Shown one piece after another: positions 3,551 through 64,000 of a DNA stretch of 64,000 bases. The DNA is from Spironucleus salmonicida. Taxonomy: Eukaryota. The stretch's first letter is position 1. Each line of letters starts with the position of its first letter. The stretch is taken from the NCBI RefSeq assembly GCF_000497125.1, contig NC_090603.1, positions 372,001 through 436,000 on the forward strand. The letters run 5' to 3'. A model generated the notes under the pieces. That model was not told the DNA's origin. It did not search any database and saw only the letters and a list, made by a program, of their open reading frames with translations. A program made the position numbers and the translations under genes.

Positions 3551-4174
3551 ATGGAAGCAGGCACCTCGGCCAGAATTATGTGCACCACGAACAAGCAGTG
3601 CCGCGAGGGAGACTCTGGGTCTAGATACTGCGACACTACTACCAAGAAGTGCATGCCGTGCTCTGCGGGATGTCTGGTCTGCACCTCCTCCACCTTCTGC
3701 GCAGCCTGTGATCCTGGAAGTGGTGCTGGCTTGACCACATTCAACGGGCAGTGCGTAGTAGAGTGTAAGCGGTAGGTGACCAACAAGTTTTGCCATGACA
3801 ATACTAGCGGTTTCTGCTCCGCAAACTCCCCGATCCCATGCTCCTGCGACGACGTCTCCGACTGCGCTACGTGCGCCTACGTGAATAAAGAATGGACATG
3901 CGATGCGTGCTTTAGGAACATGACCAAGGACATGCAAGGGCTATGCACACTGTGCCAGCCTGGCTTCGAGAAGGTCGGGGTCCTGTGTCTCGCGGTGGAA
4001 GTGGACCCAAATCCACCTGGTCCCGTTCCAGTGCCTGGCCCATCGGACCCTGCAGATCCCAGCAACAAGCTTTCAACCGGCGCGACAGTGGGCATCGTGA
4101 TCGGAGCCCTGGTAGCCGTGGGTGCCATCGGTGGGGGCCTCGCATTCTACTTCATCAGGAGGTCCAAGAAGTGA
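3551..4174 (+). CDS. cysteine-rich membrane protein (CRMP1/VSP-like, 207 aa)
   Basis: Many CxxC motifs, Pro-rich stalk, TM LSTGATVGIVIGALVAVGAIGGGLAFYFI, tail RRSKK*. ORFs 3506-3775 and 3776-4174 join through a TAG. Confidence 0.9.
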
Positions 4175-4459
4175 TCGATTGTTTTCAGTTGAGCTCGCCC
4201 TCGGGTCATGGAAAGTGCACCCTTACACTCACTGGCCCTGCTGCGCGCAGTTCCGTCCCAGCCCAGGGCCGATGCCCGAAGGCAGGCGTAAACATAATAC
4301 TTGTCACTCCCTTTTTGCCCTTTTTGGGGCTCTTGACCTCCACGTACAGCGCCCGTTTGGGGATCTTCACGAACTTGACTCCGAACTGGCCCAGGGCCCG
4401 CGAGACGTAGTCCCCTTGGTCGTGGATGTCCGTGAGGATGCTGGCAGGCCGCGTCCTCA

Positions 4460-5224
4460 TCACCCCGTCGTACTCACGAACCTGCACCTGGCGAGCGTGA
4501 TGAAGTGCGCCCCGGCCTTGGCGGCCACGATTGCGTTGAGCGTGGGGACGACGTGCTGGGGCGGCGCGTCGAACAGCTCGATCCCGCTCAGCGAGAAGTT
4601 GTAGAGCGCCGGGTCGTACAGCGCCGCGAGGAGGCGCGCGTGGTCGACGGCGCAGCGGGTGAGTCCCAGGAACTGGTAGGACTGGGCCTGGGCCTGCTGC
4701 AGCTCGCGCTGGAGGGCCTGCTGGTCCAGCGTGCAGTCGGTGAAGCGGAGCGACATCCGGTTGAAGTAGCCCATGAAGGCGAGCGAGTCCAGCATCTGGG
4801 GGCCGATGGCCATGCGCTCGAAGGACAGGTGGATCTGCCTCTCGTTCTGCGTGAAGTGGAGCACGTTCTGCAGCGTGTTGCCGGGGAACTGGCAGTCGAT
4901 GATGCGCAGGCTGCCCACGTCGGCGCACTCGGCCAGGGCGAGGCCGATGGCGAGCGAGGAGGGCAGGTCCATGATCGCGGAGTGGATGGTCACGCTGGAG
5001 GTCTGGCCCTGGGGCTTCAGCAGCAGGTTTGCGAAGCAGGGCAGGAGGGCGAGGTTGAAGGCCGCGCAGACCTGCTGGTAGCAGTCGAAGAAGAGCTTCT
5101 GCTTGGACAGCTTCTCGGGGGCGAGGGCAATGGGGAACTTGGCCTGCGAGGCGCCGAAGTTCGCGACGTTCAGCGCCGTGGAGTAGAAGGGCGGCTGCAC
5201 CGGCTGGGCGCTTTTGGGGGGCAT
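4460..5224 (-). CDS. hypothetical protein (254 aa as written; probably frameshifted, continuing toward 4206)
   Basis: MPPKSAQPVQPPF... with very high GC3; GC3 bias continues in another frame beyond the stop. Confidence 0.7.
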   Translation of the reverse strand: MPPKSAQPVQPPFYSTALNVANFGASQAKFPIALAPEKLSKQKLFFDCYQQVCAAFNLALLPCFANLLLKPQGQTSSVTIHSAIMDLPSSLAIGLALAECADVGSLRIIDCQFPGNTLQNVLHFTQNERQIHLSFERMAIGPQMLDSLAFMGYFNRMSLRFTDCTLDQQALQRELQQAQAQSYQFLGLTRCAVDHARLLAALYDPALYNFSLSGIELFDAPPQHVVPTLNAIVAAKAGAHFITLARCRFVSTTG

Positions 5225-5641
5225 TTTGCTAATTGCGGAATGGCGGGGGTGCGCCAATCCATATATTACGGCAAAAATATTTTGCGAGCTGGCAGCAATG
5301 CGCCCTGGTATCCTGCCCACCGCAGGCTCGCTGGGCAACCCGGGTGGCTCTCTGCAGACCACTGGTGCGTGCACGGGTTCCTAAAAATATTACCCTCGCT
5401 GCACTCCTGCCCTATGGCCGTGCGTGGCCTGACCTTCTGGCCAGGGGATAAATACCTGGGCTGAAGTCCGCCTGGGCCTAGGCGTGAGACAAGAGGCATC
5501 TGGAGGTCGCGTGACGAAACCGAACATACCTGGGTATTGTATTAATGTAACAGCAACTCCCTCCTTATTCGCCCTTATTGAAGATGTGCTGCAATTGTAT
5601 CATAATATCATCCCCGTCATATAATCCATTTCACCTTAAAA

Positions 5642-8600
5642 ATGATGATCTAGAGCATTGAAGAGCAAACCAGACTTGTCGACGCCATCCTGGCATCCGA
5701 TTCTGTCCCGATAGACATCGATCTCGCTAGACTCTTCAGGTCCATCAGGACGCACAAGAACATAGAAGCCCTCAGGAAGCTCCTCTGCCACCCAGTGTAT
5801 AACATCTACAAGCGCGCCAACACGCTTGCCAAGGTGTTCAAGACACAGTTTGCTGGTGAGCTGGCAGCTGCCACCAGGCCACCAGTGCTGTTTGCCCAGG
5901 CCATGGACCAAGGGGAGTTCGCGAAGGCCTACGACCTTTTCAGCCAGAATGACTTTAGCAAACTGGTCATAGGAAAGGCACAGATAAACAAGTCCCAACT
6001 GGTTGGCGACGTCATCTTCCAGCTGTTCCAGGCGGACGCGAAGGTCTTCCGCGCAGAGGCCGAGTTGGCAGCCTCTGGCGCCACCACTAGCCACGAGAGT
6101 GCCACGCGCATGGTAAATTACTTCAAGTTCCTCACGAGTAACTCCAAGCATATCCAGCTCGCGCGCTTCACCGCCGTGTACGACAGCGTCAAGCTCGAGC
6201 ACGAGTGGCTGGTCGACATGAAGGTCCCCAGCAAAAAGATAGTTGAGACCTTCAAGATGCTGCAGGCCGGGAAGCTAGCCAGGTATACCTATGACGCGGA
6301 CGATACCATCTCCGCCAAGCTGTACAAGCTAGATATTCTGAATGAGTTCTCCATAGTTGAATCGGGGGACGTTGGCCACAATATCAAAAAGTTTCTGTGC
6401 CGCGTGGACCTGCTGGATCACTATAGCCCGGACCAGATTGAATATCTGCATGATGACTAGCGCCACTACATCGCCGCCAAGAAGTACGGCTGCGACCAGG
6501 CAGCCCGTATGGTATACTTCCAGTCTCTCAGTGGCCAAAGCAGCGACATCACTCTTGATCCCCACGCGCTTCGCCAGCTCAGAGCCCGGATGACCGGAGA
6601 GCCCAAGGCCAGCCTGCAAACCGTAATGGACGCCCTGCTGTTCCCCGGGAGCGCGGAGAAGCTGGAGCAGGTGCCACTCATCTAGGAGAAGGCGGAGCAC
6701 GTGGTGGAGTACGCGCTCTTCAACAAGAAGTCCCGCTTCTTCAACTCGGACCAGCGCTACTCCGCCGTCACCGCCTATCTCGCGGCCGGATACATCCATA
6801 AGGACCTCAACCTCCTCTCCCGGGCCGCCCGCTACTTCATGCTTGCGGTCCAGCAGACCTCGGTCGCCCAGGAGAAGCTGCTGCTGCTCCAGGCCGCGCC
6901 GCTTTCCAAGGTCGTGTGCCTATTCGTGGCCCTTTGCGCGGAACTGAAGCAGGCCTTAGCCCCCCACCTCCAGAGGCTGGTGGGCCCACTTTCCGCCCTC
7001 TACCGCGCCACCGCGGATGCGAAGCCACTCGTCACAGGTCTTCCCAGCACCATATTTGAGCTTCTCATTACCTTCCACTCCGTCAACGATATTCCCGCGG
7101 AGATGTCCCTGTAGGTGTGTGAGTTCCTTCGCGCCCTCCAGTAAGAGATAGTCGGGCTCTAGTATTCGCACGCTAAGGTATCAGCCACCGTCCCCGCCCT
7201 AATCTCCGACCAGCTAAAATTTGACCAAGCGCACGTTTCTATCACCGAGAATGGCGTTACTGCCCTATTCTCGCTCGCCCAATATGCCCGCCGCTCAACC
7301 AAGGCCCAGCTGCAAGATGCTATCATACAGCGCATTGACGCGTCCGCAAATTACCAGCACACCTTCTTTTCCTGGGTGATGGATGTCGTGGACCGCCTTG
7401 GGAAAAAGATGCTCGACATACAGCTTATTAAGCAGAAAACCGACGCCTAAACTCTTGATGCCACCCTCATCCGAAAGCTCTTGGCAACTATCACTATAAG
7501 CCCCGTCATAGGATTCTAAGCATCAGAAGATAAGCGCGTCCGGGATCTTGAGAAAAATCTGGCCAGAAAGAGTTACATGCCAGCCCAGATATACCAGCAG
7601 TACGTCAGCAACGCATTTGCCGCAAGGATCAACTTTGACGTGGTCACAAGCGAACCAGCTACCATGACGTGCGTTAAAATCAACGTGGACATGATCCAGC
7701 GTCTCGTTGACAGGTTTGTCCAGATGGTGGGGATGTACGATACCAGCAGGGTCGACCTTCCGATCCAAGGCATGCTGAACTTCCATACACTCGCGGTGCG
7801 TCTTCTTACTATCTCGGGCCGCATGTATGAGACAGGTATAGCCTCGCACGCTCAGCTCCTTGCCGTAGTTACCTAGCAGGCGAAGTCTCTGCAGAAGCTG
7901 GTGCCGATCAAGCTCGACTGCCAGGAACACTACCAGGCCTTCTACGAGCAGTTATTCTCCAAGAAGGCTATTAAGACCGAGTTAAACATTCTGCCTTTCC
8001 TCAAGCAGATTCAGGTCACGGCCAACATGACGACCGCATCCAACTCTCTGGCCCTGCTCCACGCCATGATGAACTTCTTCCAGTTCACGTCCATGGCGGT
8101 CCATGTCTCCTAGCGCATGTCCAACCAGCTCCGCGTCGACCCAAAGGCAGACATTACGATCCTCTTTGAGCAGCCCATGCCGATGTCCGTGCTGAAGGCA
8201 CTTATCAAGGTGTTCTTCTCACAGAAAAATGTATCCAGCGCGTACATCTCCAAGCTCTACATCAGATCCTCCACCGATGCCAAGCAGTTCATCCTGCTTC
8301 ATTTCTACGAGAAGGCCATGGTCGAGCCCCAGTACGAGCAGATTTTCCTGGACCTCCTGAAGAACAACTGCCAGAAGTCAGCCGACGCGATGCTGCTCTT
8401 CTTTGGCAAGGTCTACAACAACGAGAACCTAAACTTCAACCTCAGGGTGTTCGATGCCATGGCCGAGCTGCAGAAGGCCCCCACGCCGTACCTGCTCAAC
8501 TACGCTGGCTGCCTTGGGCGGAAGCTCGCCATCAGCGACCAGGCCGCCTTCGACCTGTTCTGCCAGTTTTCGCAGGACGACAAGCAGGCCCCGCATTCGG

Positions 8601-9088
8601 TCGACTACCTGCTCCAGCTCGAGAACAGCGGCGAGCTCATCATGCGGGAATTTGCCAGGATCTCTTACAAGCATGCCTGCGGTTCCGCGTAAAGCAGGGT
8701 CGTCTACAGCGCCATCTACCAAACGCTCAGCCAGCCGCTGCAGACGCTCTTCAACGCAGAAATGTACGCGAAGAACGCGGCCAAGCTGCTCTTCGCGATC
8801 TTGGAGTACCTGACGGCGAGCCGATGCAGTCATTTCCCCTTCTGCTCCAGCATCCCGCTCAGTACGTTCACCCCGAGCCAGCTTGAGGCCTATGCCGTGT
8901 TCAGCGTATTCTTCTCTCTGGTTACCCCGGACGGACTCAGCCTCGCGCAGCTGAACCTCGCCGGCACCAGCCAGTACTGCCAGCTCTACTACCAGATCCA
9001 GTGCAAAGTGGACGTCACCGACGAGCAGATGGCGGGCCTTAGCCACTTGGAAAGAGTGCAGCTCGTGGGAATCCAGTCCAGGAAGTGA
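5642..9088 (+). CDS. large hypothetical helical protein (~1148 aa)
   Basis: Same-frame ORFs 5795, 6701, 7577, 7901, 8117 and 8762 are separated only by TAA/TAG; C-rich motif upstream; ends AAG-TGA. Confidence 0.85.
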
Positions 9089-21338: not shown

Positions 21339-22550
21339 TTAACTTGAAGAATAATATTATATAATATTATAAGAATTATTTTACCTGCTTTATAAACAAT
21401 TACAGTATACATTTTATATAAGAATGATATTAATTTCAATAAAATATATAAATTGTTGGTGTATATTAATTACGATTTAGTTTTACCTTTCTTGCTAAAT
21501 AGTAAGACTACCAATAATTATTCGTAATGATTTGCACCATAGTTTATGTAAATATCAATATTATTAATTTTATTAAATAATTGTGTGTGTATAGTATAAT
21601 TTTATTTATTTCTACTGGTAAGCATAATCATTAAATCATTGCATACCTTAATATTTACATTTTATATATAAACTTTTCATATTTTTAGTTCAAATATTAT
21701 TTATTATATACTAGTAATTACTATTTTGGGGTAATGTTATTTAAACATTTATGATAAACAACTAGGAAATTTGATTTGAACGACTAATTATAATATACAA
21801 GGTTATTATTAAAGATAGAATATTTTGAAAGAAATATAGATGAAGATCTCTGGACTTATTTAGATGCAATCGCGATTTATGTCGTTGATTATGAATAGTT
21901 GTTTAACTTAGTTAAAACAACGTCTTAAGTCTGTATTACCAGACTGATTATTTTAATTACTATAGTTAAAAACTAAAGTTATATAGTAAAACTAACACAT
22001 TTTAGGAATAAATAATAACAATAAATTATAAATATCATGAGTATTAAACATTTTGATCATCACTTTAGAAATTCTCATTCTAATTAACTACATAATATAT
22101 TATTTTATAAGTATTGTTTAAAATTTGTTCTTTTAATAAATTGAGAAATTGCTATTATTATTAATTGATACGTTTATATTTATAATAAGAATAAAACTTT
22201 GAACAATAAGTATTAAACAAAATATCTAATACATGCTAAAAAGTGTAGCTTGTAAAACTATAATATTCTTATTGCCCGGATATTTCGTTGTATTTAATTT
22301 TTTTAAAATAAATGATAATAATATAGTATATGAAATAGGGCATAGTTCATAAAATCACAATTAATTTCCATATTTGTTTAATTAAAAATCCCTATATTAA
22401 TTATTATAGTTTATAGATAATATTATGTCTATTTATCATTAAATAAATAGTTAATTTACCATAATAAGTAACTAAGATTCTTAAACAGAATTTAAAATCA
22501 AACTTATATTGCTATTTATCAATCAATATACTTTCGTTCTAAATCAAATA

Positions 22551-24728
22551 ATGAACAATAAAGATTTCTAAGTTTAAATAGAGTTAACTGCTGCCTATAT
22601 TGCTAAACATGCCCTTATTCAACCCAAAGTGGCTATAGTTCTTGGTTCTGGTCTTGGTACGTTCACAAATCATGCCTTTGATGCACCGCCGCAAATTTTT
22701 AACTATAAGGACATCCCCAACTTTCCTTAAACCTCCGTCCACGGACATCGTGGGGCGCTATTTGTAGGTATGATCAGATCTAAACCAGTAATTTGTTTCT
22801 CTGGCCGCTTCCACAGTTACGAGGGCCATGATAGCAGAATCCTTACGTTGCTCCCACGTATTGCTTCCTAGTTAGGATGTAAAGCGTTTATTCTCACCAA
22901 TGCTGCTGGTGGTACGCTTAAAGGCATGCAAACTGGTTGTCTAATGATCATAAAGCAACATAGCTCAACCGTACGCTTCAATCCTCTTTATGGATACGAG
23001 GGAGACTTTTCCATAGAAAGCACCAGTAATTTGAAGGAGTTCATCCAATAGCTCTCGTAGTCAACATACCCCATTACAGTAAGTTCTGACGACATTTACA
23101 GTGAGGAAATGCAGAGAATCGCTTAGGAAATCGTTACTAAGGACGAGTTTATCCAGAAAACTAAGTTCACCTTTTAGAATATCGAGAGGGAAATCGTTCT
23201 CCATTCTGGTATCTATTCCTGGAACTCTGGGCCGAACTATGAGTCCCATTCGGAGACAGCTTTTGCAGTGGATAATATTCCTGGAGCTGTGGGTATGAGC
23301 TCCGTTCACGAAGCTTTGATGGCTCGTGCATTAGGAATGCACGTTTTCGGAATGAGCATCATTACAAACTTAGCATCTGGGCTTAGCGATGAGGTAATTT
23401 GCCATGAGGATGTGCAAGTGATAGGAAGCAAAGTATCTCTCGCTGTTAACGAAGTTATTTTAGAAATTATTGAGAAAACGGATTTTGATTAACTCAAAAA
23501 GGTCGAAAAGCTGGTTGATGTAAAAAATAACAATAATGAGCTTGTTTAAGTCAATGAAAAGGCTCCCACTTAAGAAGAGGTTAAGACTTTCGCTAAGCAT
23601 TTCAAAAATATCAACAAAGTTGTAATGTATTCTGGAAGTAAATTTTAAACCTATTAACAGGACGACATTTTATTTGTATAAATAAGAAAATCAGAATCTA
23701 CTTTTAATATACTATCTGTTATTGATAGTTGTGTTTTACATAAAATAGACTAAATTTTAGTAGTAGATTAGTCACTTCCACTTGGTACTCAAATACACTG
23801 TTCTAATGTTATTAATTTAACAGGTAATCATGTGACTTTTTACGATCAGGCAACATAGTAGTAGAATTAGAAATCAAAAGTATTAGCAGTTTTTGATGGA
23901 ATTGAAGAACCGTCAACTAGTACTTATTTCAAAAATTTATAAAATTACGTTAAAGCAGATTTCCTAACCAACAAAGTTTCAGCACTCCCAGCAGTACATG
24001 CTCATCTTAGTGGTCTAGATCTTTTCTATGTATCAACTGACATGCTTCACTAAAAATTCATTAGCAACCATCCAGCTTCAGTTCAACGCCGCACTGATAT
24101 ACCTAAATTTAACCTTTTCAGTGTCAAATAGCCTAGTTATGAGGCAGCTGAAGCACTTTTTAAGACACTTCCACCATTTAAAAATGTCGTTATTTTAGAC
24201 TTTATTTCATCGAATTACACTGCAAATCTAGCAAAAATGATTAGCAAATCCACCAAACTTTCAGATAATTTATATATTGAGTCAGATATCCTTTACATTA
24301 CACTCCCAGCTCTTAACTAAAACAGTGATTTTGAATAGTAATCTGCTCTTTTGCGTATCCTTAAATTCGCATCCCCCAAAATAATCTATCTTTGCAATGC
24401 TGCTCACGGTGCATTTATCGTAAAAGACGTGATAAATTCCGCGGCAATCAACCCTCTTAGAGGTGAGAATGATGACAGATTTGGACCCCGCTTCCCAGAT
24501 TTAAGTGAAGTGAAGACTGCAACGAACTATCTGAATTTAGATAAGAAAGTTGCAGTTTTGACACTTGAACCATTCGTCAGATGTGCATGCAGAGAAGAAT
24601 TAGTCAGCGAGGGTGGTTGCATGGGAGTATTAGTGTTATGCTAGCAGAAAAGCAATTTTGACTGTGTAGTGGGAAGCATTGAAGTTTTAACCGAGGTCTT
24701 GAAAGAGTTTCTTGGCTTGAAAGAGTGA
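22551..24728 (+). CDS. PNP: purine nucleoside phosphorylase (trimeric NP-I type) fused to two degenerate PNP-like domains (725 aa)
   Basis: Domain 1 has AIVLGSGLG, YKDIPNFP, GHRG, GRFHSYEG, LTNAAGG, GPNYES, AVGMS, IITNLASG and HEDV. The frame continues ~410 aa to GAG-TGA and includes NVINLTGN and NAAHG...DVIN...NPLRGENDDRFGPRFPDLS. Confidence 0.92.
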
Positions 24729-24835
24729 GGAATTTAATAATCTTCAATATATTCAGTAAATAATAATTGAATAATTGTCACTTAGGAAATTTTGATTTGT
24801 TATTATCTGATAGGGTATGGATACAAATTTAATTG

Positions 24836-25539: not shown

Positions 25540-27018
25540 TCATCCTATCCACTAAATATATCCACGACCACTGATATCATGAAGCCCGAAATCAATTTTT
25601 GCTTTGTAATAAATTAATCTATCTGTAAGTATGAGTGATTCTACTATTTAACCTAAAAATTATCGGATCAATACATGAGTTTAGTACTTTCTTAATGACT
25701 AAATATTTTTCCCCATGAAACTGATAACTTATTATTAAGCTACTTCAAAGTCAACAAATCCGTCTTACGTGAAAAAATGTCGTGGTAAATCATATGATTT
25801 ATGTCTAAATTGAGTATATCTAGTATCTTTAATCAATTCTAATACAGCAGAAACATCTTCAGTTAACGGAAAATACTTTTAATCTAGATGACTATAACAA
25901 CATGGTATAGTTATCACTGCTCTACATTAGCTTTTAAAACTTAACAATGTAGGGGACAAATTTCCACAAGCATGGAGCCCAATAATAATAGTATTTGTAA
26001 CTGGTTAATCGCCAGTAATTTTTTCTCCAACGGCACCTTAAATAAATTTAGTATCCTAGTGATTATCAGTGATATTATAATCAATCTAATCCATTTGCTA
26101 TTACAATTCTTTTAAGTTAACTGCATTATTAAGAATATTATTGATACTGGTATCAATGTCAACAAAGCTTGCACAAAAATTGATATTATTGTAAATTTAA
26201 TTAATTAAAACCTAACTTGGTTTGTTTTGTATAAACTTTTAATCAAAAATAGAAGAGTATGTCTTACCGTAGAATCGTTTTAAAAATCCCATATTTCTCT
26301 ATAAGAAGGACCTTGAATGCTTTAGTGAGGCTTCAATCGCTACTACCTTCTCATTTTTATCATATGCCAGGAATGAACTCACATATCCTTTCCCAGCCCC
26401 TATTTCTACAAAAATTTAACCTTATCCGTAGAGATTTTATCTTCCTAGAAATTTATCAATTTGTAATATTTACTAAGCCTTATCCGCAGATATTTGGTGT
26501 TATGTTGTAGAGTAAGATGTAATTTCACATGGAGTACTTGTTTATTTTGGTAATATCAGTTTATTAATCATATTCAAGAATTTATTATCTGGAAAATCGC
26601 TGAAATCATTATCAAATAATATTTTACGGTATAGCTCCTTATTGGTAAATAAAATTTCCAATTCCAGCATCTCATCGCTAAACTAAATATCTAAGAGATC
26701 TGTATGAAAAGTCAGCAATTAAAAGCTATATATTTTAAAAAATTCATTCAAATCAGATATGTATTATGCAAATAGTTTATCTGTAACATTAATATCATAT
26801 TTATAACCAGGAAATAAACTAAACATTTTTATTAATGATATAAATTGATATAATAATATAGTATACTTCCCTTTTCCACTTTTAAATGAACCTACCTGAA
26901 TTAACATTTCCAGCATCATTAGAGGTTATAACTAAGCTATAGTTAATTTCCTTAACTAACCATCTTCCTCCAATATATGAATCCTATTTTAATATTAGTT
27001 TCGCTTTATAATAGACAT
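25540..27018 (-). CDS. METTL25/RRNAD1-like SAM-dependent methyltransferase (492 aa)
   Basis: Motif I IFVEIGAGKGYVSSFLA, KVVAIEA, IIIGLHACGNLSPTLL, VITIPCCY. Confidence 0.85.
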
Positions 27019-27056
27019 CTAAACACATAAAATAGTAGCTATTAGGCGCAGCTATT

Positions 27057-27746
27057 ATGCGATTCTGTAATTCATTCTTAGAAGACTATAATTCAGAAGG
27101 TAAGAAAATTGATCTTAAAATTGCAGCACATAAACGACACATCAGTACAGTTGTTACAGATGTCAGAAACGCATTTTCGCATACATAGATTCCAAAATAT
27201 GGAATAATTTTGAAAGCCGCCAATGAAGTTTTAAAGTATTTATAAAAAGTTTATACCCCACAAAAACTTTCAAATTATAATCTATTATAAAATAAATTAA
27301 ATTAGTTTCTCAATGCTAATACTATTAGTGTTTCACAGGAGATTTTAAACTTAATAGTTGATAATGAATTACATAATAAATACTGCTTATAAGTAATATT
27401 TTGTGGATTTTTCTATAGAAATCCTGAAATTGCATATAAAACAATGCGTTCAAGCGATAATTTCTTATCTAATGATCCTATGTCAGGGTTAAAACGGGTG
27501 ATTTAATATGTTAGAAAAACAATTGAGCTACCAATTTTTGATTTCATTCTAGGATAAACATTAAATTTCGAAAATATTTAAAAAGATCCAAGAATCGAAT
27601 TTAGTTAGGAATTTGCTGAAGCTATGAAGATTGAGATAATTGGAGAAATTGAAAATGTTTAAAATAGTGGACTTTAAATGAAAGAAAGTCATGGAACTAC
27701 ATCAGAAAGCATAAAATTGAAATGGTTTTATGGAGTTTCAGTATGA
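27057..27746 (+). CDS. hypothetical protein (229 aa)
   Basis: MRFCNSFLEDYNSEGKK...KLKWFYGVSV*; divergent from the methyltransferase with a 38 bp spacer. Confidence 0.7.
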
Positions 27747-28728: not shown

Positions 28729-29070
28729 TTGTATGATTACTTTTTCTTTTGATTAATATATTTAGATACAAGGTAACTATTTTAGTTGAAAATTTAATTA
28801 TAAGCAAAGGATTGTTTCATCTATTTATAACATTTTGTATCATGAAAGATAATAGTTAGTATTAACTCTAATTGGTTACAAGAAAACACAATAATAAAAT
28901 TTTCTTAAAATCTCATAATATCTTATTACTTGGTAGCTAATCATGTTTCCTAGTTTTTACAAATCAAAGAATATTAAACCAAAATAATATAAAACATGTT
29001 TTAGCGATCTTTATAACCACATTAATATATAAGTTAAAAAATATGATACTATAATAATACTAGTGTAACA

Positions 29071-29915
29071 AAATGAAAAAAGTGGACCCTGGCGTGAACA
29101 GCCAGATCAGCCAGCTGTGGCAGGCGAAGAAGGTGCAGAAGTGGTACCAGGACTACTTCCTGGACCTGGCGAAGGTGCAGGAGACCTACCACCGGCAGCT
29201 CCTCCAGCTGGCGGACCGCTACACGGCCTGCAAGTTCCAGGCGGACCACCTCTACTCCATCGACCTCTTCCGCTTCACCAGCGATATTGCGTGCGCCCAG
29301 TATGTGCAGTGCCGGCGGCTGGTCTCGGAGCAGCGCGAGCTCGAGATGCAGCGGCGCACGCTCGCGGACACCCTGGACCTCATCAAGCGCCAGAAGCGCA
29401 GCCGGGACCCGCAGCTGCAGATGGTGATGGACGACGCGAAGAGCGCGCAGAACAAGCTCGCCCGCCTCACCTGCCAGCGGCTGCACGCGATCACCCTGGA
29501 CCCGTGCCGGTCGCAGCTGGAGCTGGAGCTGCAGGACTCGGTGCTGCACCAGTCCCAGCGCGCGGGCCGGTCCATGGGGCTGAACCAGGACTTCCTGGGC
29601 CGGGACGCGGTGACGGACAAGTTCCACAAGTTCTCCATCCCCGAGGTGAAGGGCCCGCTCAACTTCTTCGACCTCGGGACCTACAACATCTCCTTCCCCA
29701 GCGCCACCACACAGAACGACATCCAGGACCTGGAGGCGCACATCGAGCACGTGGAGGACTAGCAGCTGCGGCTCCAGATGCAGCAGACCTTCGACCGTAT
29801 CTTCAAGAAGAACGAGACCACCAGCAGCCTCACCGGGCTGTCCGTTTTCGGGCGCAACATCGACCAGTGAGCCCGCAGTGAATTAGCACCTCACTTCTTG
29901 AACAGTTGCAGGATC
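29071..29915 (+). repeat. ~845 bp direct duplication, copy 1
   Basis: Matches 32250-33094 (offset 3179); ORF-track translations are identical in more than one frame. Confidence 0.95.
29073..29870 (+). CDS. coiled-coil protein, F-BAR/FCH-like, copy 1 (265 aa)
   Basis: ORF 29073-29762 reads through TAG to CAG-TGA; very high GC3; YQDYFLDLAKVQETYHRQLLQLADRY. Confidence 0.85.
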
Positions 29916-30436
29916 TGACCTTCTAACTATTAGTGTTCATGTTGATAAGATAATAAATATTCCTAAACTTTATTTGCTCTCTCTTAGTATGTTTGCTCAC
30001 ATTTGTTCAGTCGGTCAAGACATTATTTACACTCCTATTAGAAGATCTTAGGATCAACATCAGTTTTGAGTATTAAGTCCTCTAATGATTAACTGTGAGC
30101 TTCAATTTATTTTAAAATCTTTTCTGTTTAATCTACTGCTTTAACTGCCTCTTACACATCAGATATATTTTTTTCTTCAATAAAATCGAACTTATCTTAG
30201 AAACCTTTATACTATCGATGGGCTTCATCATCTACCATATTAGTAAGTTTAAATTATTTCATTACATGTCGATATTATTAGTCAAGTTCTTTCATTAATT
30301 CATCTACTTATATTTAAAGCTATTCCACATTACCTTGATTGTTGAGATACTATTTTACATCTAAATGAGCTATTTTATATGTAATATACTCACGTACTTC
30401 ATCAAACAGACGTTTCAGACAATCACATTATGACAT
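29891..30436 (-). CDS. coiled-coil hypothetical protein (181 aa)
   Basis: MSQCDCLKRLFDEVREYI...LEGQILQLFKK*; C-rich motif upstream; ends AAG-TGA. Confidence 0.75.
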
Positions 30437-30984: not shown

Positions 30985-32109
30985 ATGATCACCTTTCAAC
31001 CCTCCAAAACCTACAGCGAATTTTTGCTTTAAATCAAAAACTAGGGTCTGATAACACAGCAGGAATATGATTTCGTACAGCATCAGCAGCTAGGCTCACA
31101 CAACCGCACGGTGAAATACGTAGACGCAGATGCCAGGACGAGCGGTATTTGCATCTATTTACCATCCTAGTACCGGAAGGCGGCAAGCAAGTAAATTCTG
31201 AAGACGCTTGAGCTCGAGGACGCCATTATCGTCTACCTGCACAAAGGCGGCGACTTCTTGCTGCACATTCCGGCCGTCCAGGCTCATTTCCGCCGCATCC
31301 CACTCGTAATCGTGACAAACTTGGAGAATCTAGCTAGACGGTCAAGTTTCTCTGTGATAACTGATTTGGCGCAACTTCTCGCGCCCGAAATCCCGGCCGG
31401 TGCGGCGTCGCTCGTGGGGCCGTTCGAGGGCAGTTTCCTGCTCCAAATTGACACTTCCGCAGAAGCGTGCTCCGTTGCCGGGCTGATGTGCAAGGCCTTC
31501 CACGACGACCCCATTTTCGGCGTCATTCAGCCCAAAACGCTGCAGCGCGAGGCGCTCCTTTTCGACGTAATCCGCCACATTGCAGAGTAAACAGGCGTCC
31601 ACGGCCTGAATTATCTACTGGTGAGCCAATTCAACACGTTTGCAGCCTCTGCGGGCGTGCTCGCTGCGCCTGCAGGGATGCTCAAAAATCACTGGGGGAG
31701 CCCGGTACGGCTGGCGCAGATCTTCCTAAAGCACGGCCTGAGCGTTAAGAACATCGGAAATCTTGCGTTTCTGGACAAATTCCACGCCAAAAATTGCGGC
31801 GATTTGGCGAACTCGGTGTACGTTGCCTGGATCAGCGCCGCCTTGGGGTGCCAGGGGAAGGGCTTCGGCGGAATATTTATGCGATTGCTCACCGATATGG
31901 CCGATTAGTCGAATTCTTACGTCTATTTGGAGAACTCAAAGGAAAAAAATTTACAGTTTTATGAGAAATACGGGCTGCAGGTCACTTAAAAATTTGGTAT
32001 GGTCAGGGGAAATTTGAAGGCCCAGGGGTGGGGGATGCTGCGTGGAAATTCAGAAAATAGGAGTAAAATCGTGGAAACTGACGTAGCAGAACAGCTCCAT
32101 TTCAAGTGA
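30985..32109 (+). CDS. GNAT-family N-acetyltransferase (374 aa)
   Basis: AFHDDPIF; VYVAWISAALGCQGKGFGGIFM (motif A); VYLENSKEKNLQFYEKYGL (motif B); ends AAG-TGA. Confidence 0.85.
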
Positions 32110-32249
32110 GCTATTTTGTAATATTGTATTATAATGCGTTAAATCTATGTTTAGCTTATAATTAAAATAAAGTTTAGTCCACTTTTCAATCTTTAAAATT
32201 TCTTTAAAAATAATAAATTTAATATAATAATAATTTTACCGTAGTGGTA

Positions 32250-33094
32250 AAATGAAAAAAGTAGACCCTGGCGTGAACAGCCAGATCAGCCAGCTGTGGC
32301 AGGCGAAGAAGGTGCAGAAGTGGTACCAGGACTACTTCCTGGACCTGGCGAAGGTGCAGGAGACCTACCACCGGCAGCTCCTCCAGCTGGCGGACCGCTA
32401 CACGGCCTGCAAGTTCCAGGCGGACCACCTCTACTCCATCGACCTCTTCCGCTTCACCAGCGATATTGCGTGCGCCCAGTATGTGCAGTGCCGGCGGCTG
32501 GTCTCGGAGCAGCGCGAGCTCGAGATGCAGCGGCGCACGCTCGCGGACACCCTGGACCTCATCAAGCGCCAGAAGCGCAGCCGGGACCCGCAGCTGCAGA
32601 TGGTGATGGACGACGCGAAGAGCGCGCAGAACAAGCTCGCCCGCCTCACCTGCCAGCGGCTGCACGCGATCACCCTGGACCCGTGCCGGTCGCAGCTGGA
32701 GCTGGAGCTGCAGGACTCGGTGCTGCACCAGTCCCAGCGCGCGGGCCGGTCCATGGGGCTGAACCAGGACTTCCTGGGCCGGGACGCGGTGACGGACAAG
32801 TTCCACAAGTTCTCCATCCCCGAGGTGAAGGGCCCGCTCAACTTCTTCGACCTCGGGACCTACAACATCTCCTTCCCCAGCGCCACCACACAGAACGACA
32901 TCCAGGACCTGGAGGCGCACATCGAGCACGTGGAGGACTAGCAGCTGCGGCTCCAGATGCAGCAGACCTTCGACCGTATCTTCAAGAAGAACGAGACCAC
33001 CAGCAGCCTCACCGGGCTGTCCGTTTTCGGGCGCAACATCGACCAGTGAGCCCGCAGTGAATTAGCACCTCACTTCTTGAACAGCCGCAGGATC
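32250..33094 (+). repeat. ~845 bp direct duplication, copy 2
   Basis: Matches 29071-29915; visible differences are GTG/GTA at codon 4 and TT/CC near the 3' end. Confidence 0.95.
32252..33049 (+). CDS. coiled-coil protein, F-BAR/FCH-like, copy 2 (265 aa)
   Basis: Protein identical to 29073-29870. Confidence 0.85.
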
Positions 33095-39627: not shown

Positions 39628-39701
39628 GCCGGTATAGCTCAGTTGGTTAGAGCGCGACACTAGTAATGTCGAGGTCTTGGGTTCAAATCCCAATATTGGC
39701 T
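39628..39701 (+). tRNA. trnT-AGT: tRNA-Thr(AGT)
   Basis: Acceptor GCCGGTA/TATTGGC, D arm GCTC-AGTTGGTTA-GAGC, anticodon stem CGACA/TGTCG with loop CT-AGT-AA, T arm TTGGG-TTCAAAT-CCCAA. Confidence 0.95.
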
Positions 39702-44962: not shown

Positions 44963-45002
44963 GTTACTTATTATTCATTTATAGTTATGCATATTTGTTA
45001 AA

Positions 45003-45521
45003 ATGGCCAGCACCATTTCCCAGCTGGTTGAGCTACCTGCACTGCGCCGTATTTAGGTATCCCCATACAAGCCATTTAATGCTGTAATCAATCCAGGACT
45101 TCGCGCTTAGAAACCCATAATACAAAAACAGCGAAAGTCGTAAACTAACCACTTTGGTACCACCCTCAACATAGACCCGCCTGTTCGGCTCCCAGCATTC
45201 TCCAAAGTGCCGTTTTTATCGGAATTCATCGCCCGCTATCTAGGCGCTGATGTAGACTACATGTCAGTTTAAATTGACAACTGGATGCATCTCCCTACCT
45301 ACTATAAGCTGGGCAAGGCCGAAATCACCAGCGCTATTCTACAGAATTTCGCAGAGTGCAAGGACACGTAGCAGCCGCATATCAGCGAGTTAATCCCTCG
45401 CGATAACCTGAACAAGTACCTGCTCGGAAGCCGCATCCTAATCAACCCCGAGAACACGCTCAAGCGTGCGGCATTCCGGTAGCTTGCGGAGCGCGTTTTC
45501 TACCAGGGCCGCCTGAAATGA
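45003..45521 (+). CDS. hypothetical protein (172 aa)
   Basis: MASTISQLVELPALRR...RVFYQGRLK*. Confidence 0.75.
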
Positions 45522-45543
45522 CGTAGACGTCTACATAGCAAAA

Positions 45544-46194
45544 ATGGGGCACGCGGAGCGGCGTAACGCCCTCAAAATTCTGTATACTATGCCATCATTT
45601 CTGGTACTAGCAGCTGTGTTGAGCTTCAGCTACATCGAGAGGCCTGCCAGGCTGCGCCCGCGGGAACTAGGAATTTTCATTGTTCTGCTGCAGCTTCCGG
45701 CGGTTTTCACGCTCCCCAATACCACAATTTGCGTGGTTTTGAACATTTTTCTCGCCTCAGCGCTTGCTCTAAACTTCAACAGGATAGGGATTGCGTCGGT
45801 AGCTGTGGCAGGCTGCGGCTTCATGTTAGCCACCGGCTTCGCACTATGCGGCTGGCGGGGGAGGCGATAAGGTTCGATGCTCGCGTTCAGCGCACTGGGA
45901 TTCGGCGTGTTGGCGCTCGTTTTCGGCTTTGCAGAGCTCGAGCTAGCGGTCTGGGAGACGGTCTGGGAGGAGGAGAACGCAGAAATGCTATTTTGCGAGA
46001 TTTCATCTTTTCTGGTAGGTTTCGTTGGGTTAGCGTGCTTGTTTCAGAACGACTATGTGATGGTGGTCGGATTTTTGTATTTTTCGCTTCTAGAGGTCAC
46101 CCCGTTCGATTCATGGCTTGTCGGTGGTGCGCAGGTGCTGCTTCTGGGGCTGCTTGCGATTGCTGTTTTGGATAGGGGTGCAATGACAAAGTGA
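45544..46194 (+). CDS. multi-pass membrane protein (216 aa)
   Basis: ORFs 45544 and 45877 join via TAA; several hydrophobic helices; ends AAG-TGA. Confidence 0.75.
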
Positions 46195-53551: not shown

Positions 53552-54976
53552 ATGACGTCTTACACTTGCAACATATTTGTCAACGACGACCCGATGCCGC
53601 AGCTACAAAATTTAACATTACCTGCCAATACGACACCATAAGACCTATAAATGCTCCTTAATGACCTCACCGAGGATTCCGACAACCAGCTGCTCTACGA
53701 GTTCTACATCGACGCCGCCCCCATTATTTCGAGCCTACAGCAGCTCAATCTGAACGCTGAGCGCCAATTAACCATAACAGCCGTCCCACAGTCCGCACAC
53801 AAGGTCACAGCCCTGTCGCGCTGCTCCAACGACCTACCGGGCCACGAGGAGGCCGTTCTGGCGCTCCAGTTCTCCCCAAACTCCTAATTTCTCGCTTCTG
53901 GCTCCGGAGATACCACCATACGGATCTGGGACACGAACTCGTGCACGCCTGTCCGCATCCTGGACGCGCACAAGGCCTGGGTCCTGGCGCTAAAATTTTC
54001 GCCAGATTCGCAGTTCCTGGCTTCAGCAGACTTCGACGGCGTCCTGGCAGTCTTTGAGACCGCAAATTGGACCCAAATCGGCGGATTTAACGTCAAAAAG
54101 TCAATGAATCGTTGGATCACGTCCATTTCGTGGCAGCCGGACAGCCAGGCCTTCTTCACGGGCGGAAAAGACGGCTCAGTGAAGAAGTGGTCGCGGAACG
54201 GAGCGCTCCTGAAGGTCGTTTTTTCGGCCTCAAAATGCGTCACGGACGTCTGCTGCGGCGGCACGCACCTGATCGTCAGCTCAGAGGACTGCAAAGTGTA
54301 CATTTTCGACCTGATTTCGTTCAGGCTGCTGCACGAAATCCGGCACGCGCACTGGTGCAATTCCGTGCAGACCAGCCAGTGGTACCTCTGCAGATTCGGC
54401 GTTTTCGGCCTCCTGAAGCTTTTTGAGGCCTTCAGGCCCGAAATCCGCAAAATTGCGCCAGAAATCAAAAATTTGGCCGATTTTGAGGCCCTCGCGCCCG
54501 AAAAATAACTCGCCACGTACTTGAAACTACTGTAGAATAGGAAAGAAATGCTAATTGTCACTTCGGACGATCATACACTTTCTATTTACGAAATTCAACC
54601 GGACATAAAATTCGTCAAAAAGCTCACAGGGCACGTGAAGGCGGTCGCGCACGCCTGTTTTTCACCCGATGGGACGGCGATTGCGAGCGTTTCGTTCGAC
54701 CGCTCCGTGCGCCTCTGGGGCGCAGATGGAACGTTTTTGGCGAAGTTCCACAACCACGCCAGCGAGGTCTACCGCGTCGCTTTTAGCGCCGATTCGCGCT
54801 ATTTCATCACCTGCAGCAAGGACTCCACCTGCATGCTTTTCAGCGTAAAAAAGAGGAAAATGATCCGGGAACTTCCAGGACACGCGGACGAGGTTTACTG
54901 CGTTGACTGGAGTCTCCAGGGCGAGCTCGGCGCGAGCGCTGGAAAAGACCGTGTGGTCAAAATATGGCGTTAGTGA
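53552..54976 (+). CDS. NLE1: Notchless/Rsa4 ribosome assembly WD40 protein (474 aa)
   Basis: NLE domain LPANTTPQDLQMLLN...YEFYI, SRCSNDLPGHEEAVL...FSP, C-terminal LPGHADEVYCVDWS...ASAGKDRVVKIWRQ*. Confidence 0.9.
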
Positions 54977-55099
54977 GTGAAATTTGGGTTTTTGGGAGGA
55001 TTTGGTGTAATTTGAGCTATTTGGGGAAGTTTGGGGGTTGTAGACGGGCGAAATGAGTCAGATTCGGGGCTATTAGATTACATTATATGAAATGAAATT

Positions 55100-56225
55100 A
55101 TATGATATGATATGATATGATATGATATGATATGATATGATATGATATGATATGATATGATATGATATGATATGATATGATATGATATGATATGATATGA
55201 TATGATATGATATGATATATGATATGATATGATATGATATGATATGATATGATATGATATGATATGATATGATATGATATGATATGATATGATATGATAT
55301 GATATGATATGATATGATATGATATGATATGATATGATATGATATGATATGATATGATATGATATGATATGATATGATATGATATGATATGATATGATAT
55401 GATATGATATGATATGATATATGATATGATATGATATGATATGATATGATATGATATGATATGATATGATATGATATGATATGATATGATATGATATGAT
55501 ATGATATGATATGATATGATATGATATGATATGATATGATATGATATGATATGATATGATATGATATGATATGATATGATATGATATGATATGATATGAT
55601 ATGATATGATATGATATGATATGATATGATATGATATGATATGATATGATATGATATGATATGATATGATATGATATGATATGATATGATATGATATGAT
55701 ATGATATGATATGATATGATATGATATGATATGATATGATATGATATGATATGATATGATATGATATGATATGATATGATATGATATGATATGATATGAT
55801 ATGATATGATATGATATGATATGATATGATATGATATGATATGATATGATATGATATGATATGATATGATATGATATGATATGATATGATATGATATGAT
55901 ATGATATGATATGATATGATATGATATGATATATGATATGATATGATATGATATGATATGATATGATATGATATGATATGATATGATATGATATGATATG
56001 ATATGATATGATATGATATGATATGATATGATATGATATGATATGATATGATATGATATGATATGATATGATATGATATGATATGATATGATATGATATG
56101 ATATGATATGATATGATATGATATGATATGATATGATATGATATGATATGATATGATATGATATGATATGATATGATATGATATGATATGATATGATATG
56201 ATATGATATGATATGATATGATATG
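55100..56225. repeat. (ATATG)n pentanucleotide satellite, ~225 units
   Basis: Directly visible; near perfect, with three ATATATG phase slips (~55217, ~55419, ~55930). Confidence 0.99.
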
Positions 56226-62454: not shown

Positions 62455-63396
62455 TTGAATTGTGGAAGGGAGTGCGCCAAAATAGAATATATGAATATAA
62501 CTATATAATAATCGTAATATAGGTAAAATATATATAAAAACATAAATAAGTAAGAAATATAAATGTGACTGTCCTACTAAGTTGGCTCAGATGAAAATGT
62601 TGTAAAACATAAACTTTAAAATCATATGTAATGTATTTACATAGCATAATTGATATGATTACTCTAATAAAATTATAAAAATTATTAACGGAATTGCTAG
62701 AGTAAAATTTAATTTATTACCACATTATAATATGTTAAAGAAAAAATATCTTAATAATGATATTAGTTTATCTAGGTTAATGGATAAATAATTCTGATTC
62801 GCTATAATTTAACTGAAGTTTTGGTGTTGCTTTTTCCAGCGCAATCCTATTTGGATCATTAAGTGGCAAAACTCACACAGTACATCAAATTAAGCTCAAA
62901 CTACGGAAAGAAGGCTAGCAGGCCAAACTTCCCCTTTTTGCCAGTTCGCTAGCGCAGACTAATCTCTTGCGCTGCAACACGTTAAGAGCAGACCCACTCC
63001 GAACCTAGAATTCGCTCTAGCTGCTTCCCTATCTGCAGTGATCTGGAAGGCGCATCCACTTAGATCTCCTCTCTGCGCGGCACGGTGGTTCTGGCTGGAG
63101 TTCGGCAGTATTTTAGTACTGCTTCGCAGCGCACATTCAAGATGAGTCAAGCGAGCAGCCCGCATTGGGCCATCTTTGACGCTAAACTGCCGCTGTCGGT
63201 TTCCGCAGTCCCGCCGGCCTCGCATCCAGCACCATACCGTCCGGCTCGAAGCCGCTAGCCTCGTCGCGGTTATGAAGCCGAATACAATAAGATGCCTATC
63301 TAGCAAAAACAAAATTGTATACTTTCTAGCTGGAGTATACTCCCCTTAATAGTAGCCTATGCGGCCGCTGCTGCAAATCGAGGCGCCCCTCCACAA

Positions 63397-63825
63397 ATGA
63401 GCATGAAGCAGGCCATGATCCTGGAGTTCAACTTCTACAACAGCAGGAACGCGCTCATCTCCTACACCGCAAAGGCCGGCACCCCGGAGCTGACCCCGAT
63501 CGTCATCTTCAACGACGACGCCAGCACCCTGTACTTCAACTTCTCCACCAAGTCCCGCCACTACGCGGAGATCGCGAGCGCCGTGCACAAGCGCATCACG
63601 GTGGGCAACATCTACACCAACCGGCGCTCCACCTTCCAGTACGAGCTGGAGCTGCTGGATAGCAAGGCGCACGAGGACCTCTACGACCTCTGCTGGAGGG
63701 AGGAGGTCTTCGAGATGTTCGACGAGGACGAGTTCCGCGCCGACAGGGTGGTGTTCAGGATCGTCATCAAGTCCGCCCAGTTCATCGACGAGGACGACCA
63801 GATCCTGGAGGAAGTGAAGTTCTGA
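63397..63825 (+). CDS. FMN-binding split-barrel (pyridoxamine 5'-phosphate oxidase-like / general stress protein 26-like) protein (142 aa)
   Basis: GTPELTPI...LYFNFSTKSRHYAEI...LYDLCWREEVFEMF...VVFRIVIKSAQFID; high GC3. Confidence 0.65.
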   Translation: MSMKQAMILEFNFYNSRNALISYTAKAGTPELTPIVIFNDDASTLYFNFSTKSRHYAEIASAVHKRITVGNIYTNRRSTFQYELELLDSKAHEDLYDLCWREEVFEMFDEDEFRADRVVFRIVIKSAQFIDEDDQILEEVKF

Positions 63826-63828
63826 TTC

Positions 63829-64000
63829 TCACTCGCCGAGCCGCGTCTACTGGTTCTCCAGCTCCAGGATCTTGAAGAAGTCCAGCTCCGACAGCGAGAC
63901 GATGCACTGCTTGATGTTGTAGACCTGGCTGCTCTGCTTGATCTCCGCCACGGTGATCACCCGCTTGAGGTAGCGGACGAAGCGCACCACCAGCGCCTCC
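63829..64000 (-). CDS. hypothetical protein, 5' partial
   Basis: ...EALVVRFVRYLKRVITVAEIKQSSQVYNIKQCIVSLSELDFFKILELENQQTRLGE*; ends GAG-TGA, 3 bp from the convergent stop. Confidence 0.75.

Follow-up and report, generated by a model that had tools for sequence, protein, structure and literature searches.

The window analysed here, a 64,000-nucleotide stretch of Spironucleus salmonicida DNA (contig NC_090603.1, positions 372,001 to 436,000), contains a gene at 22551..24728 on the plus strand that encodes a purine nucleoside phosphorylase (PNP) of 725 amino acids (aa), followed by a TGA stop, under NCBI translation table 6. We consider it likely that the product is a monomeric, single-chain trimer of the trimeric-type (NP-I) PNP, which would have originated from an old triplication and fusion and would possess one active site, in unit 1, that is fed by a loop from unit 3. 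A first-pass annotation had proposed this core arrangement, a fused pseudo-trimer with one active site and with the lid in unit 3, and complementary conservation in 55 proteins supports it. The protein matches the profile of the trimeric-type NP-I PNPs (PF01048) and shows the PNP alpha/beta fold. Its chain comprises the catalytic unit 1 (aa 1-313; 22551..23489, +), a shrunken alpha/beta unit 2 without catalytic or lid residues (aa 341-500; 23571..24050, +) and a PNP-derived unit 3 without catalytic residues (aa 530-725; 24138..24725, +).

The division of labour between the units was examined in fused proteins from a wide range of sources. A profile search of 1.84 billion representatives returned 11,912 PNP-related proteins at E-values up to 0.001; among the best 150 of these, dozens are 800-1000 aa long and contain 3-5 matched stretches. 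With hmmsearch, 133 collected proteins of at least 600 aa were scanned with a profile of 70 proteins of 255-300 aa, which were taken as single-domain PNPs. Fifty-five of the 133 have at least 690 aa and at least two PNP matches. The following counts cover all 55, none dropped, including four possible non-triple forms (P0245, P0137, P0140 and P0206). All 12 catalytic positions are retained by unit 1 in 51/55 proteins, by unit 2 in 0/52 and by unit 3 in 0/55. Unit 1 retains at least 11 of these positions in 53/55 proteins; the median is 0 in both unit 2 (maximum 7) and unit 3 (maximum 4). The lid Phe shows the reverse distribution and occupies its aligned position in unit 1 of 3/55 proteins, in unit 2 of 6/52 and in unit 3 of 53/55, and the full G..RF.D motif is present only in unit 3 (0/55, 0/52 and 48/55, respectively). 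The four exceptions in unit 1 are three proteins with an unaligned unit-1 N-terminal part, two of which start partway into the PNP profile, and P0008. As a control, 69 of the 70 rows of 255-300 aa keep at least 10 catalytic positions and 61 of the 70 keep the lid Phe in the same domain; an ordinary PNP subunit therefore carries both the site and the lid.

A full-length alignment of 51 sequences exhibits the same separation. Unit 1 has 14 invariant residues, unit 2 has none and unit 3 has three (Gly638, Gly645 and Phe648), which are thus conserved at the same level as the catalytic residues; Asn629, Leu636, Arg647 and Asp650 of unit 3 are conserved at 90% or more. The pattern of the family also holds for the window protein, with catalytic residues in unit 1 only and the lid motif in unit 3 only. 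From its sequence, the chain permits one active site only. P0008 (806 aa, diplomonad-type) bears Asp in unit 1 in place of the base-binding Asn (human N243 position) and is the sole full-length relative with this change. The N243D substitution moves human PNP towards 6-aminopurine nucleosides, and the P0008 enzyme may prefer adenosine.

Unit 1 is, as judged from its sequence, a true PNP. It contains the motifs GSGLG (32-36), GRFHSYEG (85-92), TNAAGG (116-121), SGPNYES (226-232), VGMSS (247-251), ITNLASG (271-277) and HEDV (285-288). All 12 catalytic residues are present: Ser33, His66, Arg86, His88, Tyr90, Asn117, Tyr230, Glu231, Met249, Ser250, Asn273 and His285, the human counterparts of which are Ser33, His64, Arg84, His86, Tyr88, Asn115, Phe200, Glu201, Met219, Ser220, Asn243 and His257. 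Human numbering was placed on the profile columns by motif and by the residue list in the available part of PMC9916683, not by alignment of the human sequence. Every motif that the first-pass annotation had named for this unit is thus found in the translation. PF01048 (PNP_UDP_1) scores 103.2 bits at residues 26-308, against a cut-off of 25.1, and solved PNPs in the PDB match unit 1 with E-values down to 3.2e-41 (phmmer). In trimeric PNPs, the Glu and Asn residues are tied to 6-oxopurine specificity, and the retention of Glu231 and Asn273 predicts specificity for inosine and guanosine. The region in place of the canonical inter-subunit loop (aa 140-216; 22968..23198, +) starts with NPLYGYE and lacks the G-x-RF-x-D motif. 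At the place where PNPs have N-P-L-x-G...G-P-R-F-P-D, unit 1 has NPLYGYEGDFSIE followed by a rewritten, longer stretch. Among the 55 proteins, 13 have His in the unit-1 loop at the position of Phe159.

Unit 3, which carries YLCNAAHG and DVIN, is by sequence comparison PNP-derived, and three types of search identify it as such. A profile built from its eight diplomonad-type versions matches the PNP domains of other proteins (hmmsearch, domain E-values of 1e-14 to 1e-17). In hhalign, it matches the cleaned single-domain PNP profile at 99.0% probability (E = 2.5e-18, 188 columns). An atlas model of residues 526-723 matches a PNP cluster with a template modelling (TM) score of 0.71 over 194 residues; the atlas feature search yields scores of 0.82-0.83 and serves as a lead only. 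Within the 8-sequence alignment, hhalign of unit 3 against unit 1 returned only 0.4%, and the link emerged only with better profiles. The inter-subunit ('lid') loop of unit 3 (aa 629-652; 24435..24506, +) is defined by conservation, by model confidence and by PDB alignment. It contains Asn629, N634-x-L636-R-G638, Gly645 and R647-F648-x-D650-x-S652, where Phe648 is the counterpart of human Phe159, and NPLRGENDDRFGPRFPDLS spans aa 634-652 (nucleotides 24450-24506). In the phmmer search against the PDB, this loop segment of solved PNPs (residues ~128-169) aligns a second time to the query, at 622-654; 1vmk, for example, aligns at 9-133 and again at 622-654 with an independent E-value of 2.7e-05. 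The three-part layout and the unit-3 motif are kept in 8/8 diplomonad-type proteins. The earlier proposal that the RFP-type loop is kept by unit 3 only is borne out by the motif at aa 634-652 and by NPLYGYEGDFSIE at the equivalent place in unit 1, and its further statement that units 2 and 3 lack the base-binding motifs agrees with the near-complete loss of catalytic positions from both.

The window protein was modelled with AlphaFold2 as one compact body from the 51-sequence alignment, with a mean predicted local distance difference test score (pLDDT) of 89.0 and a predicted TM score (pTM) of 0.92. The lid loop residues 631-650 have pLDDT values of 90-94. Unit 2 is modelled at approximately 83-96, and its helices and strands come in the order of unit 1, except that one early strand and the long C-terminal helix are missing. 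Two stretches without regular secondary structure connect the units: linker 1 (aa 314-340; 23490..23570, +) between H285-309 and H341-348, and linker 2 (aa 501-529; 24051..24137, +; pLDDT 76) between E492-494 and H530-538.

The solved homotrimers provide the template for a mechanism. According to the passages of PMC9916683 on calf and human PNP, one subunit extends its long loop 141-168 to the next, where the loop packs against segments 87-91 and 196-205; Phe159 is the sole active-site residue that comes from the adjacent subunit, and the trimeric architecture of calf PNP is needed for stability and activity. In the fused chain, the three units would fold as a pseudo-threefold ring in which every loop feeds the next unit (3 to 1, 1 to 2 and 2 to 3). 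The 3-to-1 loop alone would meet a live active site, and the complementary conservation suggests that the unit-3 Phe lies over the unit-1 site. The unit-1 loop would face the dead unit 2 and the unit-2 loop the dead unit 3, so that selection would act on the 3-to-1 loop only; both other loops would be free to decay, which matches the observed losses. Unit 2 would close the ring as a scaffold. The enzyme would work as a monomer of approximately 80 kDa with one site for inosine/guanosine phosphorolysis per chain. The unit-3 loop would probably act chiefly by holding the segments of Tyr90 and of Tyr230/Glu231 in place. In many members of the wider family, the unit 2 domain keeps a relic F/Y/L-P ... 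G-I/V/M (profile columns 194-195 and 212-213, corresponding to F200-E201 and G-M219), which may be a docking surface for the unit-1 loop.

Several observations weigh against the single-chain trimer. Pfam finds a single PNP domain (residues 26-308) in the whole protein. With eight sequences only, the AlphaFold2 model is poor (pLDDT 64.5, pTM 0.61, lid loop below 35), and a good model needs the wider alignment; Foldseek of the 8-sequence model gives matches to unit 1 only. When the 51-sequence model is compared with solved structures by VIA-align, 50/50 rows lie within residues 1-314. Of the AlphaFold check suggested with the original annotation, the compact single chain was obtained, and the structural comparison covers unit 1 only. 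Diplomonad unit 2 gives no significant match to single-domain PNP profiles (1.3-1.5% in hhalign), a search of this unit against PNP domains yields nothing below an E-value of 0.3 (hmmsearch), and an iterative hidden Markov model (HMM) walk from unit 2 recovers only the eight diplomonad-type proteins and the fragment P0139. The atlas structure search with unit 2, which started from a poor atlas model, finds only GT4-like alpha/beta domains (TM 0.36-0.42), and the atlas feature search gives no usable match. The sequencing runs that cover the gene are only presumed to be RNA, and all come from one study. Finally, the same passages of PMC9916683 describe Phe159 as having no contact with the substrate and, citing an earlier study, report that F159A alters human PNP activity little. 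The second point weakens a reading of the Phe as purely catalytic, and because of both, the unit-3 loop may matter less as a 'cap' than as a buttress for active-site segments 87-91 and 196-205.

The unit-3 loop could instead serve unit 1 of another chain, as in a domain-swapped dimer, trimer or longer chain of these PNP-derived fused proteins. The linkers, at approximately 27-29 residues, are long enough to allow swapping. We regard this arrangement as unlikely, since the monomer is modelled at a pTM of 0.92 with a confident loop and since a closed ring requires exactly three units, a number that the family conserves.

Dead enzyme domains are frequently re-used. Units 2 and 3 could accordingly be pseudoenzyme domains with a new role, such as binding of a regulatory ligand or a partner, and the unit-3 loop could serve that role. 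With the exception of Arg602, every unit-3 position with at least 90% conservation is located in a single loop or next to it, and this loop could represent a binding motif. These residues, however, form the same N-x-L-x-G...G-x-RF-x-D motif as in single-domain PNPs, where the lid Phe is likewise kept, and nothing conserved is left in the former pockets of units 2 and 3 (median 0/12). Pfam also identified no extra domain or motif in the window protein. A new role for the two units thus appears quite unlikely.

The middle part of the diplomonad protein might also be an unrelated alpha/beta insert, which would leave a pseudo-dimer of units 1 and 3 with a spacer. This interpretation draws on the lack of a significant match of unit 2 to single-domain PNPs, on the failed HMM walk and on the GT4-like structural neighbours, at a TM score of 0.42 or less. 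Unit 2, which carries FAKHFKNINKVVMYSGS, NVINLTGN and ADFLTNKVSALPAVHAHLSGLDLFYVS, is nevertheless colinear with its counterpart in the wider family, whose PNP nature is clear: non-diplomonad unit 2 (41 segments) matches single-domain PNP at 99.9% (E = 9.3e-35), and non-diplomonad unit 3 (47 segments) at 100% (E = 5.9e-50). The single-domain profile used for these two values excludes P0139, a 299-aa fragment of a diplomonad-type protein. In hhalign, diplomonad unit 2 is also linked to diplomonad unit 3 (92%, E = 6e-7, 85 columns) and, within the wider family, to unit 3 (83.7%, E = 8e-6) and unit 2 (44.7%, E = 2.3e-4). The match to unit 1 is weak (8.6%, E = 0.0039) and spans 12 columns in the corresponding C-terminal helix-strand; the order of elements is that of unit 1. 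We consider an unrelated insert very unlikely. On the basis of the weak profile-profile matches, the colinearity and the order of secondary-structure elements, diplomonad unit 2 is probably a degenerate PNP domain that serves as a scaffold. Of the three PNP-derived units that had been proposed, units 1 and 3 are established by profiles; unit 2 is linked weakly (E-values of 6e-7 to 2e-4), and its direct tests were negative or without a clear result.

The reading frame and the sequencing contigs agree on one continuous gene. In the frame at 22551-24728, 27 TAA/TAG codons are read as Gln under code 6; under table 11 the frame is interrupted 27 times, and it is open under code 6 only. Each of four public sequencing runs (X1 to X4) gives one contig across all three units, with 0 joints and 0 differing letters. 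The contigs extend over 22483-24740 (X1, the longest single contig on the gene, +), 22556-24730 (X2), 22559-24740 (X3) and 22579-24730 (X4). The start codon at 22551 is the first ATG 3' of the start of the longest contig (22483). The code-6 frame remains open for another 318 nucleotides upstream, to an ATG at 22233, through DNA of approximately 17% GC, whereas the contigs start at 22483 or later; this extension (22233-22550) illustrates how code-6 calling of open reading frames (ORFs) over-extends genes. Beyond 24740, the X1 contig continues with eight A and adapter sequence that have no counterpart in the genome, which hints at a poly(A) site 12 nucleotides past the stop codon. Together, the contigs hint at, and do not prove, one unspliced, polyadenylated message. 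The colinear contig in each of the four runs argues against a transcript that ends near 23500, which had been named as an outcome that would refute the fused protein. Contig cover is nil at 21368-22471 and low downstream of the gene, and was not counted as evidence. A ciliate source with AT-rich introns within the frame was rejected, given contigs without joints and closest named relatives that are diplomonads.

That a normal 313-aa PNP gene is simply read through under code 6 into downstream sequence or a neighbouring gene is scarcely credible: TGA is the only stop in this code, the frame is open upstream to 22233 and Pfam reports one domain, but the C-terminal 400 residues are conserved in seven relatives (28-40% identity across 90-99% of the length), unit 3 shows homology to PNP, one contig per run crosses 22579-24730 without a joint, and the relatives include complete ORFs from transcripts.

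The closest named relatives of the single-chain protein are those of Hexamita inflata (723 aa), with 40% identity at 99% coverage, and of Trepomonas sp. PC1 (716 aa), with 36% identity. Five further relatives of 774-853 aa have 28-32% identity over 90-98% of the query. These matches mark the host as a code-6, Hexamitinae-type diplomonad. In relatives, the gene carries no annotation beyond purine-nucleoside phosphorylase. Among diplomonads, for which a genome survey had been suggested, the layout recurs in diplomonad-type relatives, and the architecture extends further. Three full PNP domains are common among the 55 proteins, for example in P0123 (7-278, 308-528 and 588-818), P0132, P0020, P0013 and the Anaeramoeba ignava protein P0082. 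Fused PNPs come from Anaeramoeba ignava (933 aa) and Barthelona sp. PCE (893 aa), which we take to be Metamonada and kin; from Pygsuia biforma, presumably Breviatea; from Diphylleia rotans, presumably CRuMs; from Lapot gusevi and Bolivina argentea, which we assign to Rhizaria; from Eukaryota sp. TZLM1-RC; and from further MMETSP and EukProt transcripts; these transcript-derived relatives, like that of Trepomonas, are full-length ORFs. In the databases, the protist fused triple PNPs are entries only, named 'hypothetical protein' or 'purine-nucleoside phosphorylase'. Four proteins of 628-689 aa (P0151, P0164, P0075 and P0251) have two PNP-profile matches only, the first strong and the second weak, and may represent either truncated versions of the triple form or genuine two-unit proteins.

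In a FastTree phylogeny, all 54 unit-1 rows fall on the same side of a branch with a support of 99, apart from the single-domain PNPs. The tree comprises 129 rows, namely 94 units with at least 150 filled columns and 35 of the 70 single-domain proteins (every second one, including P0139); diplomonad units 2 and 3 were too gappy and were left out. FastTree is a quick method, and branches elsewhere in the tree are long. Unit 2 needs three label changes and unit 3 needs four, again with long branches. The result fits one origin of the fused family, with a single triplication unproven. Because unit 1 of all fused proteins forms one clade, the fused architecture looks old. It is somewhat likely, in our view, that an early eukaryotic triplication gave rise to an asymmetric single-chain pseudo-trimer that persists in Metamonada, Breviatea, CRuMs and Rhizaria, in which one live site and the loop that feeds it survive; the diplomonad version would be the most reduced one known.

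The window protein belongs, as a reduced diplomonad form, to a family that is spread over distant protist lineages. It shares with the protist fused triple PNPs the order of the units, the division of labour and the unit-1 clade. In contrast, the diplomonad form is approximately 100-200 residues shorter, its unit 2, reduced to approximately 160 aa, can hardly be recognised, and its unit-1 loop has a rewritten sequence, whereas many members of the wider family retain an N-L-D...R-H-D remnant at this place. The same architecture occurs in free-living Hexamita, Trepomonas, Anaeramoeba, Barthelona, Pygsuia, Diphylleia, Lapot and Bolivina. It is therefore neither diplomonad-specific nor tied to parasitism, and the link to a purine-salvage-dependent parasitic lifestyle that was originally suggested is not supported.

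Compared with the homotrimeric NP-I PNPs (human and calf; EC 2.4.2.1; PF01048), the fused protein holds three subunits in one chain and two of its three active sites are dead. Its lid loop and active site reside on different units, whereas the ordinary subunit has both, and the expected particle would be a monomer with one site rather than a trimer with three. A comparable course was taken by dUTPases, as described in the relevant part of PMC12524310: the Drosophila virilis 'pseudo-heterotrimer' is one chain of three nearly identical domains and is catalytically active, and the monomeric herpesvirus dUTPases have two domains, lost motifs and a single active site. In these cases also, a homotrimer with interface sites was recast as a single chain by duplication and fusion. 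The dUTPase fold (jelly-roll) and chemistry are unrelated to those of PNP, and the fused PNPs differ in having three domains with one live site and in forming a cellular and widespread family.

Other PNP fusions are common in metagenomes (P0014-P0096, P0105-P0115 and P0065/P0097/P0109). They include PNP-phosphopentomutase fusions of approximately 660 aa, named from Clostridia, and fusions to TIR domains (PF13676/PF01582) or to cytidine deaminase (PF00383+PF08211). Like the proteins described here, these contain one PF01048 domain and are longer than a single-domain PNP, but their extra part is a different enzyme or a signalling domain instead of degenerate copies of PNP. In the phosphopentomutase fusions, the full single-domain profile is matched by one PNP domain and gives no further PNP hit.

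No description of a fused, tandem, triplicated or pseudo-trimeric PNP was found in the open-access and bioRxiv literature, while subscription journals may hold one; the remark in the first-pass annotation that this architecture had no known description agrees with that search. In the available parts of the diplomonad genome papers (PMC11437800, PMC7762791 and PMC4967989), PNP is given as present or absent only. The corresponding part of PMC11437800 lists PNP as present across eukaryotes, and that of PMC7762791 classes key purine-salvage enzymes as candidates for lateral transfer. Both the enzyme and the evolutionary trick are known, and their combination appears to be undescribed for nucleoside phosphorylases. 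The complementary pattern of the fused PNPs is unusually clean, and their distribution is wide and probably old.

Within the 64-kb window, spacers of 17-25% GC flank the isolated PNP gene. The neighbouring genes have no relation to purine metabolism and comprise a Methyltransf_32 protein (25540-27075, -) and a Las1-like protein (26766-27746, +); upstream of the PNP gene lie long ORFs without a Pfam family. The GC content of the window is very uneven, and blocks of 52-64% GC (for example 4001-9000, 29001-30000, 31001-33000, 45001-46000, 54001-55000 and 63001-64000) adjoin spacers and genes of 17-30% GC. The block at 29-30 kb, of 57% GC, has ORFs of 298-342 aa on both strands without a Pfam family. 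A microsatellite, (ATATG) x 227, extends over 1.1 kb at 55085-56225 with 98% matches and causes a GC-skew spike of 0.935 at 55001-56000. A tRNA-Thr (AGT) at 39628-39701 (+) is the sole Rfam or ARAGORN match in the 64 kb.

Textbooks present PNP, a drug target, as an obligate homotrimer. A monomeric pseudo-trimer with one live site that occurs in nature would reveal which parts of the trimer are indispensable, namely a single active site, a loop from one neighbour and a scaffold that closes the ring. The same question is addressed by the engineered PNP monomers in the relevant sections of PMC9916683. The family would be a clean case from nature in which redundant sites decayed asymmetrically after a fusion, in parallel to the dUTPases in an unrelated fold (relevant part of PMC12524310). 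Reduced triple PNPs are invisible to standard pipelines because Pfam reports a single domain; such pipelines miss the architecture, and presence/absence tables count the protein as an ordinary PNP. The diplomonad PNP is placed in an old eukaryotic clade and not among recent bacterial acquisitions. If the proposed arrangement is true, the family represents a natural, widespread oligomer that was 'hard-wired' and then pruned to minimal functional asymmetry, which appears to be undescribed for the nucleoside phosphorylase superfamily.

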